DNA of 64,000 nt from a virus (lineage: Duplodnaviria > Caudoviricetes): the IMG/VR virus record IMGVR_UViG_3300035492_000236. One strand, given 5' to 3'. Below, piece by piece: positions 29,293 to 29,761 of the stretch; the stretch's first letter is position 1; the number at the start of each line of letters is the position of its first letter. The notes beneath the pieces are model-generated. The model was given only the letters and a program-made list of their open reading frames with translations. It made no database searches and was not told the DNA's origin. The position numbers were made by a program, and so were the translations under genes.

Positions 29293-29761
29293 CGTGCATT
29301 CATGTCGGACGCAGCCCCGACACAGTTCTCGACAGTCGTTTCCCAACGACCCGAACTTCCCACCCATTACAGGTGGATACTAGACTATCTTATCACCCTC
29401 GGTGAGGGGCCTCCTATTTCGAACAGCCATTGGCTTGCTGCTCTACACCGCGCTACCGGTTAGTCGTTGAACTCGTCCCGTGGTCAATAGACGTTAGGGA
29501 ATCAGCTGCTGATTTAAGCATTGCATCGACCCTTAGCGCGAGGACTTCTCAGCCGTCGCTTGTTATGTGTTAGCGTAGGTCATTCCAACCCGTCTCCAAG
29601 GCGAGACGTTTGACTTTTTTCCGCCTTTCGGCTACAATCACGCTCGCCCTTTCGGACCACGTTGTTGTGTGTTGGACTTTAGCATCTTCCAGCAATTAAG
29701 GAGGTTACCAACTAGGAATTACTCCCCAGTGGGACTAGGGCATCTTTTACAGATACAGTTA
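29293..29761 (-). mobile_element. Group I intron (469 nt, no ORF) in vRNAP beta' catalytic motif
   Basis: Exon ends GAT (U) and intron ends CACG (G); P AATTGCTGGAA (29687-29697), Q AATCAGCAG, R GTTCAACGACTA (29461-29472), S AGATAGTCT (29382-29390); P3 CCTCCT/AGGAGG; GTAA-capped P9. Removal gives LGAD|FDGD. Confidence 0.93.

Follow-up and report, generated by a model that had tools for sequence, protein, structure and literature searches.

The window, a 64,000-nt stretch of the IMG/VR virus record IMGVR_UViG_3300035492_000236, carries on its minus strand a putative virion RNA polymerase (RNAP) beta' gene that is interrupted within its catalytic aspartate motif (Table 1). The upstream open reading frame (ORF) opens at a start-capable ATG at 31198 (from the ORF list and its translation) and ends with GAA CUC GGU GCU GAU (ELGAD), the last base of which lies at 29762; a UAA stop codon follows directly (29761-29759). 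The second piece of the gene reads UUC GAU GGU GAC ACU (FDGDT) from 29292 downward and comprises 57 codons before the stop at 29121-29119. Excision of the intervening 469 nt (29761..29293) yields an in-frame product of 536 amino acids plus the stop, with both exons in phase 0. The gene order at the locus, in which a divergent gene for a large lytic transglycosylase or tail fiber is followed by the gene for the N-terminal part of beta' and then by the beta gene, is the same as in phages SPN3US, pVa-21, and phiKZ.

Both pieces of the gene match PHROG 2986 (539 positions; labeled 'RNA polymerase beta subunit'), exon 1 at positions 9-484 (E = 7e-193) and exon 2 at positions 485-538 (E = 1e-8). The two matches abut exactly, with zero positions missing or duplicated. 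Pfam has no family for exon 1 or exon 2, and a phmmer search of PDB sequences with an uninterrupted homolog returned no match; because these searches do not recognize the protein, its assignment to beta' stands on PHROG 2986, synteny, and the literature. A megablast search of positions 26000-32000 against the phage collection also gave no match. According to published work, SPN3US gp240 makes up the N-terminal portion of virion RNAP beta' and bears its catalytic motif (PMC5105663), and phiKZ gp180 is one of the virion RNAP subunits and contains the Mg-binding DFDGD (PMC10612078). Packaging in the virion is reported for these two proteins in the literature. PHROG 2986, synteny, and literature agree with one another and with the gene identity proposed in the initial annotation (virion RNAP beta', gp180 homolog). 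Hence, as judged from its sequence, the gene is a homolog of phiKZ gp180 and SPN3US gp240 and encodes the N-terminal part of the virion RNAP beta' subunit.

A tblastn search with the beta' protein retrieved homologs in 309-310 jumbo-phage records. The closest cultured relatives by amino acid identity are the proteins of Vibrio phages pVp-JHP1101 (gp171, 73%) and pVa-21 (72%), with SPN3US (gp240) further off at 57%. In all three phages the protein is a single unbroken ORF of 530-537 aa, and two IMG/VR relatives (63-65% amino acid identity) are likewise unbroken. A MAFFT alignment with the three uninterrupted homologs from pVp-JHP1101, pVa-21, and SPN3US is gapless at the junction (marked here and below by an arrow): LGAD↓FDGDTGSGD aligns to LTADFDGDTSSGD and, in a longer form, LGAD↓FDGDTGSGDSVYTDEALEENR aligns to LTADFDGDTSSGDSVYTDDALEENR. 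The GADFDGD motif rebuilt at this point matches the TADFDGD and GGDYDGD of the homologs. Furthermore, a shift of one base would alter a conserved aspartate, which fixes the splice boundary and leaves no room for sliding. Frame restoration, contiguous PHROG 2986 matches, and the gapless alignment all bear out the coordinates, junction, and product of about 536 aa that had been read from the letters alone, including the in-frame restoration of DFDGD (LGAD↓FDGDT). The boundary rule invoked at that stage also holds, with a U as the last exon base and the G at 29293 as the last intron base.

Table 1. Features of the interrupted beta' gene, of the intron within it (I1), and of two sibling introns (I2 and I3). 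Positions refer to the window unless marked otherwise; nt numbers count from the first base of I1.
Feature	Position	Strand	Details
Exon 1, virion RNAP beta' N-terminal subunit	29762..31198	-	479 codons, ends ELGAD; last RNA base U
Group I intron I1 (predicted), 469 nt	29293..29761	-	starts UAA (in-frame stop), ends G; RF00028
Exon 2	29119..29292	-	57 codons + stop, starts FDGDT; PHROG 2986 and gapless alignment
P1 3' strand, internal guide sequence	29733..29737	-	nt 25-29 UAGUC; RNAalifold columns 3-7/89-93
P1 strands by intron			I1 GAU↓UA + UAGUC; I2 CGAU↓G + CGUCG; I3 GGAU↓A + UGUCC
P2 hairpin	29711..29730	-	nt 32-37/46-51, loop GAGUAAUU
P3 5' strand	29699..29704	-	nt 58-63 CCUCCU, pairs with nt 347-352
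P4 5' strand, element P region	29689..29694	-	nt 68-73, pairs with nt 250-255; cmscan
Enlarged P5 extension	29520..29681	-	nt 81-242, two GAAA-capped hairpins and an A-rich stretch
P4 3' strand, element Q region	29507..29512	-	nt 250-255; cmscan
P6 + P6a	29471..29506	-	nt 256-291; cmscan, RNAalifold; P6a covaries
P7 5' strand, element R	29461..29465	-	nt 297-301 GACUA, pairs with nt 375-379
P7.1 + P7.2 hairpins	29421..29460	-	nt 302-341 (302-315, 319-341); hand pairing
P3 3' strand	29410..29415	-	nt 347-352 AGGAGG
P8 hairpin	29396..29408	-	nt 354-366; cmscan alignment
P7 3' strand, element S	29383..29387	-	nt 375-379 UAGUC
P9 hairpin	29360..29376	-	nt 386-402; five pairs, 4/5 compensatory in I2 and I3
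P9 extension hairpins	29296..29359	-	nt 403-466; MFE fold; 3' of the Rfam match, diverged from I2/I3
Intron 3' end	29293..29295	-	A467 and C468, P9.0 partners of U383 and G382; terminal G469
I2, 470 nt, virion RNAP beta gene	25591..26060	-	RF00028 50.5 bits; junction by tblastn and codons
I3, 520 nt, family-B-like DNA polymerase gene	contig 28163-28682		outside the window

The insert has the anatomy of a group I intron. A local, permissive cmscan of positions 29100-29950 matched RF00028 over the full model (1-253; 29746..29360) with 32.2 bits (E = 2.9e-6). The Rfam gathering score for RF00028 is 50 bits, a detection threshold and not a structural definition, and I1 is unlisted in the whole-window scan because it scores below it. 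The whole-genome RF00028 scan listed I2 and I3, with I1 absent; I1 was recovered by the local permissive scan and by a profile of its paralogs only. All four of the P, Q, R, and S elements noted in the initial annotation were located (AAUUGCUGGAA, AAUCAGCAGC, GUUCAACGACUA, and AAGAUAGUCU). The conserved core helices P3, P4 (P/Q), P6, P7 (R/S), and P8 are all paired, including the P3/P7 pseudoknot. The class assignment made at first reading is thus upheld by the full-length RF00028 match, the two paralogs, and the core helices, which identify the insert as a group I intron in the catalytic aspartate motif of the predicted virion RNAP beta' gene. The single-sequence fold energy of I1 is ordinary (z = -1.5), nine of 100 shuffled sequences folding equally well.

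The cmscan alignment also shows a 42-nt insertion between P7 and the P3 3' strand, in which hand pairing yields two hairpins, P7.1 and P7.2. Counterparts of these hairpins, with other sequences, are found in I2 and I3; the single-sequence fold of I1 does not reproduce them. From the hand-paired P7.1 and P7.2, the look of I1 is subgroup IA-like.

A canonical P1 helix had not been obvious by eye, and this reservation no longer applies. A search anchored on the splice sites taken from the protein alignments identified a P1 of 5 bp (G-3/C29, A-2/U28, U-1/G27, U1/A26, and A2/U25), in which the last exon U forms the splice-site wobble with G27. The helix covaries in the paralogs and is predicted independently by RNAalifold, with U-G at the splice site in all three. 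For example, the pair at +1 is U-A in I1, G-C in I2, and A-U in I3, and the pair at -4, missing in I1, is C-G in I2 and G-C in I3. The guide sequence sits 2-3 nt before P2 in each of the three introns and keeps its GUC core, and all three insertion sites are preceded by GAU. The 5' exon ends of I1 and I3 are alike over a longer stretch (ACUCGGUG..GAU and ACUCAGUGGAU).

Comparison with the paralogs extends to the other helices. The six pairs of P2 differ in sequence from copy to copy (compensatory changes in I2 and I3) and enclose a common GAGURAUU loop. P3 is formed by CUUUCU/AGAAAG in I2 and by GAUAUC/GGUAUC in I3, and P7 (GACUA/UAGUC) is identical in the three introns. The P5 extension (~160 nt) is common to I1, I2, and I3, and its P5a stem (86-91/173-178) covaries. 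At the 3' end, P9.0 (G382-C468 and U383-A467) also covaries, with A-U in I2 and I3 where I1 has U-A. A P10 helix was also looked for in I1 and amounts to 1 bp only. RNAalifold on the three pre-RNAs recovered P1, P2, P5a, P6, P7, and P9, with double changes in 47 of the 107 pairs, a count drawn from three related sequences only (I1, I2, and I3).

The two siblings of I1 interrupt genes for other polymerase proteins. I2 is listed above the gathering score in the whole-window RF00028 scan (26074..25654), and its excision joins ...APGIMHDD to GKRASFVGIQHG at the junction MHDD↓GKRASF. The spliced product of I3 would read ...MTQW-I-VTLPAHMVELNG, a junction confirmed by an IMG/VR homolog that is unbroken across the same point (...GWIITLPSHLVEENG). 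Identity is ~54% between I1 and either sibling and 73% between I2 and I3; the pairwise nhmmer scores are 80 and 66 bits between I1 and its two siblings and 197 bits between I2 and I3. A profile of the three introns found exactly three copies in the 174-kb contig. By these measures of similarity, I1, I2, and I3 clearly represent one ribozyme lineage.

We propose, with a probability of about 90%, that I1 is an ORF-less, IA-like group I intron that is excised from the beta' pre-mRNA and belongs to a mobile population of introns in phiKZ-like phages. The pre-mRNA would fold into a ribozyme core spanning P3-P9, with the short P1 presenting the last exon U to the guide UAGUC through the U-G wobble. 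Splicing would begin with the attack of an external guanosine on the 5' splice site. Exon 1, once released, would react immediately after G469, which P9.0 holds in place, and GAU would be joined to UUC in a single reading frame of 536 aa. In unspliced RNA, the UAA formed by the first three intron bases would end translation, and the product would lack two of the three metal-binding aspartates. Such a product would presumably be dead, from which we infer that splicing is required for viable virions. The anatomy of the intron, together with that of experimentally studied relatives, likewise leads us to infer both the splicing and its autocatalysis.

It is improbable that I1 no longer self-splices and instead needs a phage or host protein cofactor, or is removed so inefficiently that it limits the output of virion RNAP. 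The short P1 and near-absent P10, the Rfam score below the cut-off, the divergence of the 3' region from I2 and I3, and the lack of a maturase-like ORF in I1 are all consistent with such a dependence. However, a weak P10 is common among self-splicing phage introns and counts against it. Furthermore, all core helices, as well as P7 at the guanosine site, are preserved and either covary or are invariant, and the gene is essential in relatives (PMC5105663).

The intron-bearing DNA was found to be identical in contigs of five metagenome runs, one of which has a different year and habitat label. Word depth was 7-37x in four tar-pit runs and ~4x in the hydrocarbon run, with zero differences, and a 366-nt contig of the 2013 hydrocarbon metagenome spans the exon 1-intron boundary. 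The contigs of the four DNA runs contained no intron-less allele, the sole other joint being a paralogue cross-match, and the sequencing-run search for this DNA listed no RNA run among those that contain it. The unchanged recurrence of the sequence in the four tar-pit runs and the hydrocarbon run argues against a dead intron lodged in a beta' pseudogene or in the genome of a defective phage, as the ~75% completeness of the contig might suggest. Both exons also remain undamaged and in frame, share 63-73% identity with functional homologs, and keep the catalytic residues, and the sibling introns sit in two more essential genes with equally clean junctions. A dead intron is, on this evidence, very unlikely.

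We give hardly any credence to the idea that the insert stays unspliced and that the motif is divided over two polypeptides, one of 479 aa and one of 82 aa translated from an ATG at 29367. This ATG does lie in frame within the insert, 25 codons before FDGD, and the RNAP subunits of such phages are already split into several genes (PMC7598289). Yet the ATG falls in the P9 hairpin loop with no Shine-Dalgarno-like sequence ahead of it, no homolog is split at this point without an intron, and the spacer shows complete ribozyme anatomy. A repeat-induced assembly chimera, in which the beta' gene would have received a copy of I2/I3, is scarcely credible. Three related copies do occur within one contig, but I1 (~54% identical to I2/I3) has diverged too far to be mis-joined. 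Independent contigs from several runs cover either the whole stretch or the boundary of exon 1 with the intron, always without differences, and the insert coincides exactly with a codon boundary where other phages also have introns.

The survey of gp180 homologs suggested in the initial annotation did find introns at this site, in phiKZ, fMGyn-Pae01, Goslar, and Yong MS31. RF00028 matches above the gathering score lie at the identical GAD↓FDGD junction in phiKZ (92 bits), fMGyn-Pae01 (88 bits), Yong MS31 (70 bits), and Goslar (68 bits). In phiKZ, gp180 stops at ...PLGAD and FDGDT appears ~1.4 kb downstream, with gp179 in between. The phiKZ intron is like I1 in its gene, junction (GAD↓FDGDT), class, and neighbor genes. 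In contrast to I1, it carries a 357-aa endonuclease ORF (gp179), and introns of its type are without the large P5 extension. Both the phiKZ-type intron and I1 start with UAACUGU and end with ACG, the only sequence they have in common. This start (29754-29761 in I1) could reflect the stop codon together with P1 constraints, or it could be a remnant of shared history; I3 starts with AAACUGUAU.

Single-sequence nhmmer comparisons of I1 with the beta' introns of phiKZ, fMGyn-Pae01, and Goslar gave 0 bits each. The intron of fMGyn-Pae01 (a Phikzvirus) is ORF-less, like I1, and 481 nt long. Goslar, an E. coli chimallivirus, has a 2.0-kb intron at the identical insertion point (gp205/gp206) with an ORF resembling phiKZ ORF179. 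This intron is annotated as Intron_gpI in the Goslar record and scores 44 bits against the three-intron profile. At the same insertion point, the Vibrio chimallivirus Yong MS31 has an ORF-bearing intron of 1.4 kb (6 bits against I1).

Two published accounts place introns in phiKZ gp55 and gp180, the latter after Ceyssens et al. (2014), and regard gp72 and gp179 as homing endonucleases encoded within introns (PMC11512511; PMC12676376). In PMC5105663, Figure 7 also indicates introns in subunits of the virion RNAP. This kind of intron is already known and its novelty is low, since the type phage phiKZ is interrupted in the same gene at the same junction. I1 is a nuclease-less member of the mobile introns that repeatedly target this motif in phiKZ-like (chimallivirus) phages.

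Ranked by their match to I1, its genomic siblings come first, followed by the DNA polymerase intron of Goslar and the beta intron of PhiPA3. The PhiPA3 intron interrupts gp210 (virion RNAP beta) after two conserved aspartates, which is the site of I2 (MHDD↓GKR). Its core resembles the lineage of the window (44-49 bits), whereas its host gene differs from that of I1. Furthermore, the gp210 intron carries an HNH nicking endonuclease that acts in phage-phage competition (Birkholz et al., 2024; PMC11620839), whereas I1, I2, and I3 are without an endonuclease. Outside the contig, the nearest ribozyme relatives by profile score are DNA polymerase introns of IMG/VR 3300024239_000015 (115 bits) and Goslar (71 bits). 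The former occupies another site (...CWVSD↓DVKSSYP, in the motif region ending SxYP), and the latter has an HNH/NUMOD1 ORF. The 115-bit relative is present in IMG/VR contigs of 233 kb and 112 kb (2771-3149 of one extract). A pattern scan for the P4 motif was also tried as a lineage marker and rejected as unspecific (more than 112 matches), being usable only after profile re-scoring.

Several group I introns per genome, ORF-less or ORF-bearing, are likewise known from T4 (td, nrdB, and sunY), Twort, and the Bastillevirinae (PMC11878797). As here, those introns lie in conserved motifs of essential nucleotide-metabolism or polymerase genes and have IA-like P7.1/P7.2 hairpins. Unlike in those phages, the introns here reside in genes of the phage's own multisubunit RNAP, and a single lineage accounts for all three copies.

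The longest ORF within I1 has 53 aa, and the intron contains no internal HNH, GIY-YIG, or LAGLIDADG ORF. In phiKZ, PhiPA3, and Goslar, the endonuclease ORF follows the 5' splice site and precedes the ribozyme core; the equivalent position is taken up by a 22-nt P1 loop in I1 and by a loop of ~80 nt in I3. Across the contig (~75% complete), HNH_3 had no match and HNH had one sub-threshold match, far from I1. A GIY-YIG ORF (contig 173374-173604, minus strand; 33 bits, 313-aa open frame) lies ~42 kb past the window end and is the sole clear homing-endonuclease-type domain in the contig.

The three sites of the lineage are beta' GAD↓FDGD, beta DD↓G, and the DNA polymerase gene; elsewhere, these sites hold unrelated cores with HNH endonucleases. 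The new detail in this phage appears to be the presence of one ORF-less lineage at three known homing sites, with a sequence seemingly unrelated to that of the phiKZ-type intron. Three routes could each account for the pattern: loss of the nuclease once homing had taken place, recombination among the intron copies, or reverse splicing. We regard it as possible, if doubtful, that the lineage colonized the three homing sites by reverse splicing or by intragenomic core replacement (recombination). If it did, the phage would be a natural test case for intron movement without a nuclease of its own.

The catalytic motif is also interrupted at other positions. Introns follow the second aspartate (DFD↓GD or DHD↓GD) in vB_pir03, phiKp_32, and MIZ-Pa99 and the third (DYDGD↓) in VP4B, each with an RF00028 match (37-51 bits) and a recognizable exon 2. 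Ten of 60 alignments in an evenly spaced sample of the tblastn records end at residues 479-483. A junction-spanning tblastn with 120 aa found at least 145 records unbroken across the junction; short exon pieces are lost in this search, which therefore gives no direct count of records with introns. Judging from these matches, the comparison shows all three aspartate codons of the motif as intron insertion points across public genomes. Insertion at all three aspartate codons accords with the view of mobile introns as settling at places where their imprecise loss is lethal (PMC12908238).

The main value of the finding lies in a corrected annotation and in the nuclease-less lineage at three sites; alone, it opens no new question. 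Gene callers will give a truncated beta' fragment and an orphan ORF of 57-82 aa at this locus, and the correct product would be one 536-aa subunit with the full aspartate triad. The uncultured tar-pit phage would thus join the phiKZ-like phages with a splicing-dependent virion RNAP. The same misannotation is present in the published genomes of phiKZ (gp180), Goslar (gp205), and VP4B. For example, the RefSeq entries for phiKZ gp180 and Goslar gp205 leave the 3' exon (FDGDT..., ~55-60 aa; 6176-6346 and 6482-6640 of the respective extracts) unannotated and close the coding sequence within the intron. Because the coding sequences end there, the deposited proteins lack two catalytic aspartates. The small 3' exons in vB_pir03, VP4B, phiKp_32, and MIZ-Pa99 are mostly unannotated or labeled 'hypothetical'. 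We also identified a related intron after ...ITRYPM in a distant beta'-like gene (23% identity), at about 1203-1450 and about 11100-11440 of two extracts, which adds one more jumbo-phage RNAP gene with an intron at a conserved motif.
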